DNA from: Shigella phage SFN6B
Sequence record: KY684082
Length of the DNA: 43,036 nucleotides
Strand: one strand, 5' to 3'
Shown here piece after piece: positions 591 through 24,687 of this stretch (positions are counted from its first letter, which is position 1; the number at the start of each line of letters is the position of its first letter). Made by a program: the position numbers and the translations under genes. The notes beneath the pieces are model-generated. The model saw only the letters and a list, made by a program, of their open reading frames with translations, was not told the DNA's origin and did not search any database.

Positions 591-717
591 TTACATTGTG
601 CCGATTATATGCTACTCTGCGCGCTCCCCACTGAGGCGCACTTCCACTACCCACCACACGCCGTCACCTAGTGCTATCCCTTCACCCTTACTTTCATTCG
701 AAAGCTAATAAGAAATG

Positions 718-734
718 ATGTTACAGGAGTAGGA
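718..734 (+). promoter_or_regulatory. Candidate phage-RNAP promoter, copy 1 of exact 17-mer ATGTTACAGGAGTAGGA (left non-coding end)
   Basis: Exact 17-mer shared with 20183..20199 and 32788..32804; ends in ...GAGTA|GGAG, resembling the -1/+1 region of T7-family promoters. Confidence 0.4.
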
Positions 735-1201: not shown

Positions 1202-1230
1202 TTGACACCGCGAAGAACATAGGCTAGATT
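1202..1230 (+). promoter_or_regulatory. Sigma70-like early promoter (TTGACA - 17 bp - TAGATT)
   Basis: Perfect -35 hexamer TTGACA, 17-bp spacer, -10 TAGATT (4/6); lies in the non-coding leader upstream of the first ORFs. Weaker candidates near 1070-1099 (TTGCTT-18-TATAGT) and 1274-1302. Confidence 0.5.
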
Positions 1231-7370: not shown

Positions 7371-8122
7371 CGATAGGGCAATCGAGTAGGTTCCGCTGCT
7401 GCGGCAAGACTCCTGCAGCGGTAATCTACAATAAACCTGACACCTGGAGCATGTACTGCTTTAGGTGTCACAAGACTGTTAATGAGCGCAAGCAGTACCA
7501 GCGCATACAGTTACAGGAAGAGCCGAGGGTGCAGCCCTCTGCACCTGCAGATGCAATTTGCATTAGCCAAGCGCCTGCGGAAACACAGAATTTTATTTAC
7601 GGATTCCTTGCTACAAAAGGAATCATGCCTGAAATGGTGGGGGATGCAGAATGGAGCAAAGAGAAACAGCGGATACTATTCCGTGCCGGGGGTGCTGTAC
7701 TGGGCCGCGCTGTTCATGCCCGACAGCAACCGAAGTGGGTAATGTACGGCCAGCCAATAGCTTTCGCTGTCGCGGCACCTGCCGTAGCACCGGCTGTAGC
7801 TGCGGCCGCACCTCTAAAGGTCGTGCTCACCGAGGACTTACTCTCAGCCCGGAAGATACAGCACGCAGTTACGAGCTACAGTGCGTTGAACGTGCAGGCT
7901 ATAGCTATGCTGGGTACACGCTTGCCCACGCAGCTAAGGGCCTGGCTGATTCAGAATCGCCCGGAAGTGATTCTGATGCTGGATAATGACCCGGCAGGGC
8001 ATGCTGGGGTAGTAGCAGCACGCAAAGCACTGCGCCCGTTCATGCAGTGCCGAGAACATTACTTCGCTGCGGATCCTAAGGACGCAGAAATCAAAGAGAT
8101 ACTGGAGGCGCTTAATGCTTAA
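7334..8122 (+). CDS. DNA primase (zinc-binding domain plus TOPRIM)
   Basis: CCGKT...CFRCHK zinc-finger pattern; TOPRIM-like VVLTEDLLSARK and VILMLDNDPAGHAG; sits immediately upstream of the helicase. Confidence 0.8.
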   Translation: MDEPWLRACKRLAIGQSSRFRCCGKTPAAVIYNKPDTWSMYCFRCHKTVNERKQYQRIQLQEEPRVQPSAPADAICISQAPAETQNFIYGFLATKGIMPEMVGDAEWSKEKQRILFRAGGAVLGRAVHARQQPKWVMYGQPIAFAVAAPAVAPAVAAAAPLKVVLTEDLLSARKIQHAVTSYSALNVQAIAMLGTRLPTQLRAWLIQNRPEVILMLDNDPAGHAGVVAARKALRPFMQCREHYFAADPKDAEIKEILEALNA

Positions 8123-12245: not shown

Positions 12246-12407
12246 TGATAGGTGTACCCTCGGGTGGTGTAGGGGGTTAGGGTAACATGAGAATTAGCCA
12301 GGGTCAAGTAGATAATTAAATAAAATTATTTGTTGACTCTGGCTTGATTCTGTGATTTACCGAGAATTAATGTGATACGAGTAGGAACAACATAAGAGAG
12401 GCAAACC

Positions 12408-13388
12408 TTGGCTAAAATTAGTTTGATTAACCTGTTCAGCAAAGACCAGCACGAGGAAGTGCTGAGTTATCATAAAGACAACACGGCGGCAGCTGCAGCC
12501 TACACAGCTATGACGGATGGGAAATACCCAGTGTCCCGCCAGCTTGTACGCTACTGGCGCAGCATCTTTATGGATAATAATGGTAGCAAGGCAAAGGCTA
12601 ATAATGCTTTGATGCAAGCCCGCAAACTAATCCAGCCCTCCCCAACGGATGACATTGGGGATACGTTTGTACCGGAAACCTGTCGACGTATTCTCGTTAT
12701 CGGGGACCTGCACGAACCGTACACACACCCGGACGCGTATGACTTTTTATGCACTGTGAGGGATGAGTACTGCCCAGACATTGTGGTGCAGATAGGCGAT
12801 GAGACAGATGGACACGCTATTAGCTTCCATGATAGCAGTCCGGAGTTAGACAGCGCTGGAGTGGAATTAGAGAAGGCCAAGCTCGGTCTGGAGAGGCTTC
12901 ATGCTCTGTTCCCTAACATGCTCCTGTGCGACTCTAACCATGGCTCCCTTGTATACCGTAGAGCCAAAGCTCATGGACTCCCTGTACAGTTCATTAAGAA
13001 GTATCGGGACATCCTGTTCCCAGAGCACGGAGCGCCGGGGTGGAGTTGGGGTGATGCTTGGGATTTAAATACTCCGATGGGTACTGTGCGATTTCAACAT
13101 CAAGTATCTGGGGACCTTCTGCTCAACGCAGCTCATGAACGTAAGTCCATGGTAATTGGACACTTCCATGGGAAGTTAGATATACAGTATGCGGCGAGCA
13201 GCACTGCTTTGTACTTTGGTGCGCACTGCGGTTGTTTAATCGACAATAAGAGTCTGGCATTTGCTTATGGTAAGTTGTCAAGAAGCAAGCCGATTCTAGG
13301 GTGTATGGTGATTACAGATGGATGCCCACAAATCATCCCCATGCTATTGGACGACACCGGCCGGTGGTGTTCTAGAGTACAACCCTGA
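12408..13388 (+). CDS. Calcineurin-like metallophosphoesterase (putative nuclease or phosphatase)
   Basis: MPP signature blocks GDLHEP, GDETDGH, DSNHG, GHFHG; TTG start after GAGAGG. Confidence 0.7.
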   Translation: MAKISLINLFSKDQHEEVLSYHKDNTAAAAAYTAMTDGKYPVSRQLVRYWRSIFMDNNGSKAKANNALMQARKLIQPSPTDDIGDTFVPETCRRILVIGDLHEPYTHPDAYDFLCTVRDEYCPDIVVQIGDETDGHAISFHDSSPELDSAGVELEKAKLGLERLHALFPNMLLCDSNHGSLVYRRAKAHGLPVQFIKKYRDILFPEHGAPGWSWGDAWDLNTPMGTVRFQHQVSGDLLLNAAHERKSMVIGHFHGKLDIQYAASSTALYFGAHCGCLIDNKSLAFAYGKLSRSKPILGCMVITDGCPQIIPMLLDDTGRWCSRVQP

Positions 13389-17706: not shown

Positions 17707-20175
17707 ATGATTAGCGCCCTGAATACGGTTGTAGTACCCGAGGAAGCACTGGTGGAACGCCAGTTGGAGCTTGAAGAGACTTACAAGATTCGCGGCATTG
17801 AACGTGCTCGCAAATTGATTACCGACGCTCTACAAAACGGCGGGATTATGAACCTGCCTATGACTCAGCGCATGCTAACCTCTGCGTACGACGTGGCCTC
17901 TGCAGCCATTGAGGAAATGCGTAACACCAAAGCCCCGGGTATTGGTGGAAAGTACCGCCGATTCCTACGCTTAGTCCCCTTGGATGTCCTAACTACTCTG
18001 AGCCTGTGCACAATGTTTGAGGCGTTCAGTGTTGCTCCTGGTGAGTCCGCCAGTCGCCGCCAAACAGCTCAGGCAGTGATGTCCGCTCTGGGTAGGAATG
18101 TACAGTCAGAGCTGCTGGCCCTACAACTACGTAATGTTGCCCCAGCGTATATGGACCGGGTATATGAATACCTCACTGAGCGCCGTACTAAGTCGCCTAC
18201 GCACATTCTGCGTACGCTCCGCGCCAGTGCTGAGAACGTGCACTATGGGCATGAGCCTTGGACCAACGCTCAGAATATTTCTGTGGGACGTCTGCTGTGT
18301 TCCGCAGTGTTTGAGACAGGGCTGTTCCAGTGGAAGACTGGTAGCGGGAACTTGAGTATGCTCTATCCCGCAGATAATGTTATGGAAGCATTTCAGCAGT
18401 TAGTGGAATCTGCTGACACTGTAACTATGAAGCCTCCGATGCTGGTGCCTCCGGTGCCACATACTACACTGTGGGATGGTGGCTACCTCACCCCAATAGA
18501 TAACCGTGGGACGTACCACAACTCACACATTGACCGCGCCAGACTGCGTGAAGTAGCGGAAGCATTTAAGTCTGCGGACGGTATCAAGAAGGCACTTAAT
18601 AAGGCGCAGGAAACTCCTTATCGCATTAATAAGCGAATACTGGAACTGGTACAAGAAGCACGGGCCTTAGGTATTGGTGTAGGTATGCCGCGCTCAGTGC
18701 CAGAGCCGAAACCTGAGTGGTACTTAGATGGTGTACCAAAAGAGAATTACACCGAGGAGGAACTCGACCGCTTCGGAGAGTGGAAGACGCGTATGTCCTT
18801 ATGGTACAGCGCAGACCGTAAGCGTGTGTCACAATTACGTAGCCTATTGACCACGCTAGAGATGGCAGAGGAATTCAAAGATGAGAAAGCCCTGTACTTC
18901 CCAACCTGTGTGGATTGGCGGTACCGGCTGTACTTCAAGTCCTCACTGCACCCCCAAGGTTCTGATTTGCAGAAGGCACTTCTTGAATTCGGACGAGGTA
19001 AACCTCTGGGAGAGAGAGGGTTATTCTGGCTTAAAGTGCACGTCGCTACCTGCTTTGGTTATGACAAAACCCTATTCGAAGACCGTGCAGCTTGGGTTGA
19101 TGCAAACTTTGCAGAGATTGAGCAGCTCGCGGATTCCCCTTTTGATTGCCCTGCTTTTACCTCCGCTGACAGCCCTTGGTGCTTCCTGGCAGCCGCTATT
19201 GACTTGGTTAATGCTGTACGTTCTGGATGCCCAGAAGAGTACATTAGCCGAATCCCGGTTGCTATGGATGCTACAAACTCAGGTGGGCAGCACCTCTCAG
19301 CGCTCCTGAGAGACCCTGTAGGCGGACGCCTGACGAACCTGTACTGGGAGGGTAACGACAAGAAAGCGGATCTGTATATGGACGTGAAGCGCCGTACGGA
19401 CGAGAAGGTGATACTGGACCTGGACAAAGAGGATTTCGTTATCCAGAGCACGTACTGGAGAGAGAACGAAATCACTCGAAGCATGACCAAGCGTCCTAGC
19501 ATGACCTACTTCTACAGCGCCACGGTGCGCAGCTGCAGCGACTATATCTTTGCCGGGGCCTGTGAAGAGGGGTATGAAGGAACGGATACGCACAGTCTTT
19601 GGAACCTTTCCTGCTACCTGGCTCCCAGAATGCGCAGTGCTATTGAGGAAGCTAACCCGGCAGCAGCAGCAGCTATGGGGTATCTGCAGAACCTCGCTAG
19701 GCGTGTACCTGCTAGTCAGCATCTGCAGTGGAAGACTCCGCTAGGTGGGCTGGTGATGAACCGGTACTCTCAGCGAGAGGAGGTACGTGTACGTATTGAC
19801 TGCATGAACCTGTCCGCCGTGCTGGTACACAACCGTGACTTTAAGACCTGTAATAAGCGCAAGGCCGCCTCTGGTATTGCCCCGAACTTTGTACATAGTC
19901 TGGATAGTACGCACTTGATGATGGTACTCTGTGCGGCAGAAGGTCTGGATATTGTCCCGATTCACGATTCGATGGCGACTCACGCGGCTGATGTAGATGC
20001 CCTGCACCGACATATCCGTGAACAGTTTGTGAAGCTGTACGAGGAGCACGATCTTCTGGGGGATATTACCAGGGCAGCTGCCGAAGCAGGGGCAGACCTG
20101 ACGGACCTGGATATGCCTGCGGTTGGTACTTTGGACATTCGGCAAGTGCTAGAATCTCCGTTCTTCTTTTCATAA
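17707..20175 (+). CDS. Single-subunit DNA-directed RNA polymerase (T7-like)
   Basis: 822 aa; motifs VAMDATNSGGQH, RSMTKRPSMTYFYSA, APNFVHSLDSTH, PIHDSMATHA parallel T7 RNAP motifs A, B and C; GGAG upstream. Confidence 0.95.
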   Translation: MISALNTVVVPEEALVERQLELEETYKIRGIERARKLITDALQNGGIMNLPMTQRMLTSAYDVASAAIEEMRNTKAPGIGGKYRRFLRLVPLDVLTTLSLCTMFEAFSVAPGESASRRQTAQAVMSALGRNVQSELLALQLRNVAPAYMDRVYEYLTERRTKSPTHILRTLRASAENVHYGHEPWTNAQNISVGRLLCSAVFETGLFQWKTGSGNLSMLYPADNVMEAFQQLVESADTVTMKPPMLVPPVPHTTLWDGGYLTPIDNRGTYHNSHIDRARLREVAEAFKSADGIKKALNKAQETPYRINKRILELVQEARALGIGVGMPRSVPEPKPEWYLDGVPKENYTEEELDRFGEWKTRMSLWYSADRKRVSQLRSLLTTLEMAEEFKDEKALYFPTCVDWRYRLYFKSSLHPQGSDLQKALLEFGRGKPLGERGLFWLKVHVATCFGYDKTLFEDRAAWVDANFAEIEQLADSPFDCPAFTSADSPWCFLAAAIDLVNAVRSGCPEEYISRIPVAMDATNSGGQHLSALLRDPVGGRLTNLYWEGNDKKADLYMDVKRRTDEKVILDLDKEDFVIQSTYWRENEITRSMTKRPSMTYFYSATVRSCSDYIFAGACEEGYEGTDTHSLWNLSCYLAPRMRSAIEEANPAAAAAMGYLQNLARRVPASQHLQWKTPLGGLVMNRYSQREEVRVRIDCMNLSAVLVHNRDFKTCNKRKAASGIAPNFVHSLDSTHLMMVLCAAEGLDIVPIHDSMATHAADVDALHRHIREQFVKLYEEHDLLGDITRAAAEAGADLTDLDMPAVGTLDIRQVLESPFFFS

Positions 20176-20182
20176 AAATTTA

Positions 20183-20199
20183 ATGTTACAGGAGTAGGA
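20183..20199 (+). promoter_or_regulatory. Candidate phage-RNAP promoter, copy 2 of exact 17-mer ATGTTACAGGAGTAGGA
   Basis: Sits between the RNAP stop and the first downstream gene, abutting its ATG. Confidence 0.45.
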
Positions 20200-20909: not shown

Positions 20910-22505
20910 TTGGACTATAAAAAGACATTAGCGGAACTGTTCCTGGGGGACCAGGATGCTGGCGTACTGGATGCGTCAGAGAAGTTTGCTGAGTGGACGC
21001 TACCTACAATCTTTACCAGAGAGCTCTATACTGATGGGCGGCGTATGCAGCTTAGTCGAGACTATCAGAGTACAGGTGCTCAGCTGGTCAATACAGCAGC
21101 GACTAAAATTGTAGGTGCATTATTCCCGCAAGGTACTAGCTTCTTTCGGTTCTCTAAGAGTGCGGCCCTTGACAACTTTATTAGTAGTCTGGGAAGTTCT
21201 AGCACTGCGGAATCCCGTTTATCCGAGGTAGAGAACACCGCCTCTCAGAAGGTGTTTGAGAAGGATGGGTATGCTGCTAAGCTTCAAGCTGTGAAATTGC
21301 TGCTTATCACCGGGAACGCATTGGAGTATATCGATGAAAGAACCGGGAAATCCATTATCTACTCGGTCCGTAACTTTACCGTTCGAAGGGATGGTAGCGG
21401 GAACGTGCTGCGACTCATTATCAAAGAGCGCGCCAGCATCCAGGACCTACCAGAAGACATTCAAAAAGCACACTACAATGGTCGAGACCCATACAGCGAC
21501 ATTGATATCTACACTGCCGCTTGTCGTAAGATTAAGCACCTTCCAAATGGAGAAGAAGCAGTAAGCTATGAGGTGTATCAAGAAGTTGATGGCCGTCGCC
21601 TAGGCGAGAGCAGCACCTACCCTGAGCTGGAGCTTCCGTATAACGTATTGGTGTGGAACCTGGTTAATGGTGAGCACTATGGACGCGGTCTGGTGGAAGA
21701 CTATGCAGGTGACTTTGCGCGACTGTCTGTGTTGACCGAAGCGTTGACCAACTACGAGATTGAAGCCTCACGTCTTATCCCTATGGTCGATGCCAGTTCA
21801 GGCTTGGACGTTGATGAGTTCTCTCAAGCCGAGACCGGTGAGGCAGTACAGGTTGGTGGCGGTGGTAGTAATGGTAACACCAAGTCCCCTGTAACAGCTT
21901 ACGAGGGTGGTGCAGCTCAAAAGATTCAGTGGATTGCAAGCGACATTCAGATGCTTGAGCAGAAACTGGCCCGTGCGTTTATGTACACCGGCAATGCTCG
22001 ACAGGGTGAGCGTGTAACTGCTTACGAGATTCGTCAGAATGCTAAAGAGGCAGAGTACGCTATGGGTGGTGGATTCAGCATCCTCAGTGACTCCTGGCTG
22101 CGTAAGCTCGCGTACCTGTATACTATCGTGGCATATCCTAAGTTCAAGGTGTACCTCACCGAGGGTGTAGTGGATATCAACGTGATGGTAGGTACTGCAG
22201 CACTGGCTAAAGCAGCAGCAGCAGATAAACTGCTAGAAGCTACCCAGGCTATGCAGCTGGCTATTCCTGTGCTCAAACAGCTTACTCCTCGCTTTAATGA
22301 GGATGCATGCGTAGATTGGTACTTGGATGCATACGGTATTGTAAGTGGACCGTTCATGCTCACAGAAGAGCAACTACAAGAGAAGCAGCAAGTTCAAGAG
22401 AATGCAGCGGCGGCATCGGCAGCTCAAGCGCAATCACAGGTACAAGACCTACAGGCAGCGGACCCAACCGTAGCAGGACAACAACTAGGCCTGTTACCGG
22501 GCTAA
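20910..22505 (+). CDS. Portal (head-tail connector) protein
   Basis: 531 aa; block GERVTAYEIRQNAKEAEYAMGGGFSILSDSWL matches T7 gp8 GERVTAEEIRYVASELEDTLGGVYSILSQEL as recalled; TTG start after AGGAGG. Confidence 0.9.
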   Translation: MDYKKTLAELFLGDQDAGVLDASEKFAEWTLPTIFTRELYTDGRRMQLSRDYQSTGAQLVNTAATKIVGALFPQGTSFFRFSKSAALDNFISSLGSSSTAESRLSEVENTASQKVFEKDGYAAKLQAVKLLLITGNALEYIDERTGKSIIYSVRNFTVRRDGSGNVLRLIIKERASIQDLPEDIQKAHYNGRDPYSDIDIYTAACRKIKHLPNGEEAVSYEVYQEVDGRRLGESSTYPELELPYNVLVWNLVNGEHYGRGLVEDYAGDFARLSVLTEALTNYEIEASRLIPMVDASSGLDVDEFSQAETGEAVQVGGGGSNGNTKSPVTAYEGGAAQKIQWIASDIQMLEQKLARAFMYTGNARQGERVTAYEIRQNAKEAEYAMGGGFSILSDSWLRKLAYLYTIVAYPKFKVYLTEGVVDINVMVGTAALAKAAAADKLLEATQAMQLAIPVLKQLTPRFNEDACVDWYLDAYGIVSGPFMLTEEQLQEKQQVQENAAAASAAQAQSQVQDLQAADPTVAGQQLGLLPG

Positions 22506-24650: not shown

Positions 24651-24687
24651 GCCCCTGGTGCCTTCGGGTGCCGGGGGCTTTTTTTTG
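24651..24687 (+). terminator. Rho-independent terminator after the capsid region
   Basis: GCCCCTGGTGCC-ttcg-GGTGCCGGGGGC forms a 12-bp stem (with G-U pairs) and UUCG loop, followed by T(9). Confidence 0.8.

Follow-up and report, generated by a model that had tools for sequence, protein, structure and literature searches.

A 17-bp sequence, ATGTTACAGGAGTAGGA, recurs in the genome of Shigella phage SFN6B (KY684082), and one of its copies follows closely on the gene for a single-subunit RNA polymerase. The question raised by this locus is whether the repeat serves as the promoter of that polymerase. The whole stretch of 43,036 nt was analysed and is referred to here as the window. It contains exactly three perfect copies of the 17-mer, at positions 718-734, 20183-20199 and 32788-32804, all on the + strand, which also carries all long ORFs of the window. 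In dinucleotide-preserving shuffles, matches averaged 0.08 even when up to three mismatches were tolerated, and four were never reached. Copies 2 and 3 have the 19-mer TAATGTTACAGGAGTAGGA in common while copy 1 starts with TGATG instead, and the flanks of the three copies are unrelated to one another. All three run on into GGA after GAGTA, which places a G at +1 as a matter of sequence and not of initiation. The preliminary description had reported three identical copies, 19 nt common to copies 2 and 3 and a recurrence beyond chance, and these points were all reproduced at the same coordinates. Its 17-bp repeat is likewise real but does not give the extent of the unit, as the functional unit is 16 nt long and starts 2 nt farther upstream.

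The window represents a whole, circularly permuted genome of a Drulisvirus (KP34-like phage). In the alignment, nt 1 of KP34, the start of its terminal repeat, corresponds to window position 188; therefore the record is a whole genome which was opened about 187 nt before the terminal repeat. Both ends of the window (within 1-187 and 43020-43036) are poly-C runs, suggesting that the assembly was opened within a homopolymer tract. When the 6-kb segment 17000-23000 was used as query, 256 phage records matched, nearly all of them Drulisvirus-type podoviruses of Klebsiella or Escherichia. The closest over this segment were IK_ECO1, KPV811, Hope and Minorna with 95-96% identity, while typical KP34-like phages showed about 83%. 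A search against Rfam gave no match anywhere in the window.

Identity of the motif with the strong promoters of KP34

The polymerase of KP34 has been characterized by Lu et al. 2019 (PMC6834552). The purified enzyme gave transcripts from a template spanning the end of the polymerase gene, and most 5' ends were located by 5'-RACE at nt 22213, so that +1 is the G directly after GAGTA (PMC6834552). Two strong promoter sequences were described, S1 (TAATGTTACAGGAGTA) at nt 22197-22212 and 33721-33736 and S2 (TGATGTTACAGGAGTA) at nt 475-490; both 16-mers were transcribed with similar efficiency in vitro, while the 14-mer common to them was much weaker alone (PMC6834552). The three 16-mers of the window (promoters 1 to 3 in Table 1) are the same as the KP34 strong promoter T(A/G)ATGTTACAGGAGTA, letter for letter. 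The number of sites, their order (S2, S1, S1), strand and syntenic positions and the GGA at +1 to +3 are also the same in the two phages, and the similarity extends to the flanks, for example GGAATGAAGTTAAA after site 2. The junction between -1 and +1 had been placed at GAGTA/GG in the preliminary description, and the same junction is the one mapped by 5'-RACE in KP34. KP34 and SFN6B are nevertheless distinct phages: KP34-type genomes show about 83% nucleotide identity to the window over the 6-kb query, and KP34 gp48 lacks an insertion of about 190 aa which is present just upstream of site 3 in the internal virion protein gene of the window.

The polymerase of the window is identical to that of KP34 at 788 of 821 residues (96%). 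The core of its specificity loop, CMNLSAVLVHNRD (CMNLSAVLVHNRDFKTCNKRKAAS), and the recognition-loop motif KAPGIGGKYRRFLRL show no difference from the KP34 enzyme. The elements of a KP34-type strong promoter, namely the 16-nt sequence, a cognate polymerase with matching loop, three co-directional positions and G at +1, were all found in the window. From KP34 we infer promoter activity for the sites of SFN6B. The polymerase of KpnP (907 aa) was set aside as a comparison, being nearer in size to the 884 aa of the T7 enzyme (PMC12272871). A full-text literature search with the motif or with the sequence of the fourth site described below matched no paper, and the KP34 polymerase paper was the sole route to the motif. 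The thrice-repeated motif is an already known feature and ordinary for KP34-type phages.

Table 1. Positions in the window of the predicted promoters and of the features discussed together with them
Feature	Position	Strand	Remarks
Predicted promoter 1, S2 type TGATGTTACAGGAGTA	716-731	+	Corresponds to KP34 nt 475-490; predicted +1 G732
Host promoter, sigma-70-like, TTGACA-17-TAGATT	1202-1230	+	Corresponds to KP34 host promoter 931-959 by position and -35 sequence
Fourth promoter-like site TAATGTGATACGAGTA, then GGAACAAC (+1 to +8, to 12391)	12368-12383	+	13/16 bases of the strong promoter; +1 would be G12384
Single-subunit RNA polymerase gene, 822 aa	17707-20175	+	Pfam RNA_pol (E 3.9e-90), RPOL_N
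Homologue of KP34 'weak promoter', ACTTTGGACATTCGGCAAGT	20128-20147	+	Two synonymous mismatches; inside 3' end of polymerase gene
Predicted promoter 2, S1 type TAATGTTACAGGAGTA	20181-20196	+	Corresponds to KP34 nt 22197-22212; predicted +1 G20197
First gene after promoter 2, 146 aa	20200-20640	+	No Pfam match; ATG at +4 of the promoter 2 transcript; counterpart of KP34 gp38
Strong intrinsic terminator after capsid block, GCCCCTGGTGCCTTCGGGTGCCGGGGGC then T8	24651-24686	+	Homologous to KP34 terminator 26623-26660
Internal virion protein gene, 1420 aa	31479-35741	+	Holds promoter 3; homologue of KP34 gp48
Predicted promoter 3, S1 type TAATGTTACAGGAGTA	32786-32801	+	Corresponds to KP34 nt 33721-33736; predicted +1 G32802

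Conservation in relatives and the polymerase specificity loop

To follow the motif in relatives, syntenic loci were taken from IMG/VR by way of three anchor proteins (the polymerase, an early protein and the internal virion protein) and were joined by contig with three complete genomes. This protein-anchored retrieval was used instead of a scan of IMG/VR with the exact 14-mer, which returned mostly single chance matches in unrelated contigs. All three sites were found wherever the region was covered, in about 65 relatives. Site 1 is kept in 39 relatives, and site 2 follows the polymerase gene in all 64 tabulated genomes in which the region is covered, the window included. Site 3 is kept in 56 of the 56 Drulisvirus loci examined, including gene alleles with only 56% identity in protein. 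In more distant relatives (47-50% protein identity) the motif is missing at the place of site 3. The absence from close relatives which would have spoken against the promoter reading in the preliminary description was thus not observed.

Within this conserved motif, one base varies together with the polymerase. At -7 (position 10 of the 16-mer), A is found in genomes with the specificity loop CMNL-SAVL-VHNRD and C in those with TIMR, rarely TILR or TIVR, in place of SAVL, with no exception. The numbers of A/SAVL and C/TIMR-type genomes were 23 and 16 for site 1, 32 and 32 for site 2 and 28 and 29 for site 3, though phylogenetic dependence among the relatives means that these counts overstate the number of independent events. 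At site 3 the change at -7 converts ACA to ACC, both of which encode threonine, so it is synonymous. Both classes of base are present on the same alleles of the gene around site 3, including the divergent 56% allele, and because of this the base at -7 tracks the type of polymerase and not the local history of the gene. Third codon positions around site 3 also differ in their variability: 3 of 7 vary inside the motif (plus GGA) as against 16 of 20 in the flanking codons.

In a MAFFT alignment with a 5-residue gap nearby, the variant loop residues (window region 19800-19811) correspond to residues 753-756 of the T7 polymerase, and the position carrying L or R corresponds to T7 Arg756. The T7 polymerase-promoter crystal structure of Cheetham et al. 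1999 reportedly has hairpin arginines reading template-strand guanines. The change of L to R paired with that of A:T to C:G would fit such a reading of guanine by arginine. SAVL with A and TIMR with C look like two natural classes of polymerase-promoter specificity in a single genus.

The preliminary description had proposed the repeat as a candidate promoter of the phage RNA polymerase, and this proposal is well supported. By analogy with KP34, the three copies are very probably promoters of the phage's own T7-type single-subunit RNA polymerase, because the sequences proven in KP34 are identical, the synteny is kept, the polymerase is nearly identical (96%), the sites are conserved in relatives and the base at -7 co-varies with the specificity loop.

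Alternative readings and other promoter systems

Three other readings of the repeat were weighed. The one with the best footing, itself very unlikely, takes the motif as a strand-specific nick or other DNA-level signal, for recombination or packaging, as in phiKMV-like phages. The nick consensus of the phiKMV group is CGACxxxxxCCTA/CTCCGG (PMC3517423). Reverse-complementing the nick core gives the segment from -8 to +2 of C-type promoters, CCGGAGTAGG, so that C-type relatives match the core at 10 of 10 bases; the corresponding core of the window, GGAGTAGG (reverse complement of CCTACTCC; 724-733, 20189-20198 and 32794-32803), matches at 8 of 10, and a Drulisvirus, fHe-Kpn01, is known to have nicks. 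None of the three copies, however, has the CGAC half where the spacing calls for it, GTCG being missing 5 nt downstream, and the full consensus of a phiKMV-type nick site on one strand was found at none of them. In fHe-Kpn01, moreover, the only additional peak of read coverage reported apart from the genome ends, which was attributed to a nick, is at nt 7873, a position within the primase gene that coincides with no promoter. A role in nicking would in any case leave the promoter activity proven in KP34 standing. With the CGAC half absent, the match between promoter core and nick core may be a coincidence. At the position in the window corresponding to the fHe-Kpn01 nick at nt 7873, the primase gene contains a palindrome, GGTGCAGCCCTCTGCACC (7528-7545). 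Six nucleotides before this palindrome lies TACAGTTACAGGAAGA (7506-7521), which is promoter-like at 12 of 16 bases and is also present in KP34.

More improbable still is a role in translation, with the motif as a Shine-Dalgarno block (AGGAG) plus fixed spacer that is reused before genes. This reading draws on copy 2. Promoter 2 is separated by 5 nt from the polymerase stop codon and by 3 nt from ATG 20200, the 17-mer itself running right up to this ATG, and its AGGAG (-7 to -3) lies 5 nt ahead of this ATG, a layout which is the same in KP34. Judging from the sequence, promoter 2 probably doubles as the ribosome-binding site of gene 20200 in read-through RNA from upstream; AGGAG would be carried solely by this read-through RNA and not by RNA initiated at the promoter. 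At the other two sites the translation reading fails. Copy 1 has no ORF behind it, and GGAGGGTTTTAGGGCAC... after it offers no start codon at a usable distance; copy 3 lies in frame inside the 1420-aa ORF with no start codon within range. A ribosome-binding site has no need of 16 invariant bases and should not co-vary with the specificity loop of a polymerase. The remaining reading, that the repeats are functionless products of chance, recent duplication or a shared coding constraint, could appeal to the protein encoded across copy 3 for part of the conservation, but it is scarcely credible in view of the shuffle mean of 0.08 matches, the non-coding location of two of the three copies, their unrelated flanks, and constrained synonymous positions in copy 3, one of which co-varies with the polymerase.

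The promoter reading places the motif beside those of other single-subunit polymerases. As in T7, T3 and SP6, it is a short duplex promoter recognized through the specificity loop. The T7 promoter and the motif of the window both start with TAAT, have TA at -2/-1 and initiate with GG(A). The T7 class III promoter TAATACGACTCACTATAGGGAGA, however, has 17 nt upstream of +1 as compared with 16 in the window, and the central bases are unrelated. T7 also has 17-18 promoter copies as against three, and its polymerase gene is located in the early region, whereas that of the window stands at the end of the DNA-metabolism block. The polymerase of the window is about 28% identical to that of T7, and the combination which marks a promoter of the T7 group (Teseptimavirus), the consensus TAATACGACTCACTATAGGGAGA together with a T7-like polymerase, was not found. 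The motif is, by analogy, one that works like a T7 promoter without belonging to the T7 family. In T7, the phiOL promoter precedes the host promoters near the left end of the genome, and promoter 1 of the window resembles it in this position.

In layout, the window is closer to the phiKMV-like phage LUZ19, which has few phage-specific promoters, one or two of them directly after the polymerase gene and one more in the structural region (Putzeys et al. 2024, PMC10914365). Promoters of the LUZ19 type are highly conserved within the genus, and the sparse layout was discussed for KP34 too (PMC10914365). The sequence of the LUZ19/phiKMV promoter, GgtTATGTCACacACAnnGG, is unrelated to that of the window. 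Pantoea phage LIMElight, with its putative promoters, and contigs like Erwinia phage Zoomie also carry a repeat directly after the polymerase gene, although their consensus GACACGTTATAGAGAGACA differs from that of the window. They possess a further copy after the DNA polymerase gene, which is syntenic with the fourth site of the window. This copy is near-perfect in LIMElight and the Zoomie-like contigs, while the site in the window deviates at 3 of 16 positions.

Two other promoter candidates were considered. The homologue of the KP34 'weak promoter', unlike the strong promoters, showed no sign of constraint at the DNA level, with 13 variants, mostly synonymous, among 61 relatives. The 32-nt motif proposed as the phage promoter of Kp34likevirus by Eriksson et al. 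2015 was rejected, as the KP34 polymerase did not transcribe from it in vitro (PMC6834552). In the window this motif, AGCCTATAGC...GCTATGTGAA, occurs twice (1796-1827 and 2644-2675), and the first copy folds as a 10-bp hairpin (z = -3.4); the motif may represent a site of RNA processing or attenuation.

Genomic setting, a fourth site and the proposed transcription scheme

The preliminary description had expected a late promoter between the RNA polymerase gene and the structural block. This holds for copy 2 alone, as copy 1 precedes the early region and copy 3 is internal to a late gene. Promoter 1 belongs to the left end, which is non-coding, and about 470 nt lie between it and the first sigma-70-like host promoter downstream. 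RNA from promoter 2 would begin with GGAAUG and have a leader of only 3 nt before the first ATG; correspondingly, KP34 gp38 starts at 22216, three nt past the mapped start at 22213. Such a short leader is awkward for the translation of gene 20200 from the promoter 2 transcript. Within the gene for the internal virion protein, promoter 3 falls on codons for ..T N V T G V G...

The surroundings of promoter 3 show further peculiarities. The insertion of about 190 aa that KP34 gp48 lacks covers window positions 32151-32732 (aa ~225-418 of ORF 31479-35741) and ends 17 codons before promoter 3. It contains a Pfam match to GNAT acetyltransferase (aa 309-401, E 1.3e-6) and was found in just two IMG/VR contigs (L189 and L190). 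A conserved island of about 80 nt around promoter 3 parts divergent gene modules on either side, and this island may be a recombination joint.

The search with the 17-mer also brought up a fourth site, at 12370-12386 with three mismatches, which is absent from the list of the preliminary description. Its 16-mer differs from S1 at -10, -8 and -6. The site is intergenic: the DNA polymerase gene and then a small ORF precede it, and a metallophosphoesterase-like gene follows. Of the 58 Drulisvirus genomes tabulated, 57 have an identical 16-mer, the exception being one TGATG variant, and -7 is A in all 58. The GGAACAA following it is nearly as constant, while a 7-nt patch just upstream varies freely. 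The 71-nt region around the site matched 243 GenBank phage records, with no annotated feature among the matches listed. Its counterpart in KP34 is at 12983-12998, which was not among the sites assayed in the KP34 study (PMC6834552).

Several features speak for a promoter at this fourth site. The 5' TAATGT and the 3' GAGTAGGA are as in the strong promoter, and a transcript would have a sensible 5' leader with a purine-rich ribosome-binding site. At the syntenic intergenic place, the Zoomie-like contig L179 has a near-perfect copy of the motif that also occurs twice right after its polymerase gene, and in the LIMElight record a "putative phage specific promotor" is annotated at the corresponding place. 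Against a promoter are the three mismatches, which fall where the specificity loop should read, and the A at -7 in both polymerase classes, which means no co-variation with the loop. That the site is a phage-polymerase promoter so far undescribed in Drulisviruses is put forward as a tentative reading, to which we give somewhat less than an even chance. One possibility is a weaker promoter of the middle class that polymerases of both specificity types could use; another, by analogy with the primary origin of T7, is a promoter coupled to a replication origin. A sigma-70 consensus was not detected at the site in the promoter scan; a reading by eye as TTGATT-N18-TAATGT is possible, with the variable patch in its spacer. 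The fourth site may be the sole part of this analysis that is new.

Positions 12296-12345, just ahead of the fourth site, form an inverted repeat of 50 nt whose centre is AT-rich (AGCCAGGGTCAA...TTGACTCTGGCT; RNA fold z = -4.7). Its arms GTCAAC...GTTGAC recur at the syntenic place in L179, and GTCAAT...GTTGAC is found in LIMElight (L307). Possible roles of this inverted repeat are those of a protein-binding palindrome, a site of RNA processing or a component of an origin.

Together with the host promoter and the terminator, the three predicted promoters suggest the following scheme of transcription. Host RNA polymerase would start at the sigma-70 promoters of the left end, such as 1202-1230, and read rightwards into the polymerase gene. 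The newly made phage polymerase would then bind T(A/G)ATGTTACAGGAGTA as a 16-bp duplex. On the model of T7, its N-terminal recognition loop would read the AT-rich 5' end and its specificity loop the central GTTACAGG in the major groove, while AGTA would be melted, and RNA synthesis would start at the G immediately downstream (G732, G20197 and G32802). Promoter 2 would serve the structural genes up to, and partly past, the terminator at 24651-24686, which probably attenuates its transcripts. Promoter 3 would add to the transcription of the distal late genes, including those for tail fibre, terminase, lysis and tailspike, and promoter 1, upstream of the whole early region, would let the phage enzyme transcribe the genome from its left end. 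We infer this division of labour among the three sites, and the contacts between residues and bases, from the related systems.

For SFN6B, the comparison with KP34 yields a transcription map by homology, with three starts for the phage polymerase, one host promoter region and one terminator, features which annotation pipelines leave unmarked in most related records. The pairing of a four-residue variant in the specificity loop with the base at -7 points to two pairs of polymerase and promoter that are orthogonal by nature. If the distinction between SAVL/A and TIMR/C is true, it would represent a naturally occurring switch in which one base separates the specificities of two polymerase classes of the same genus.
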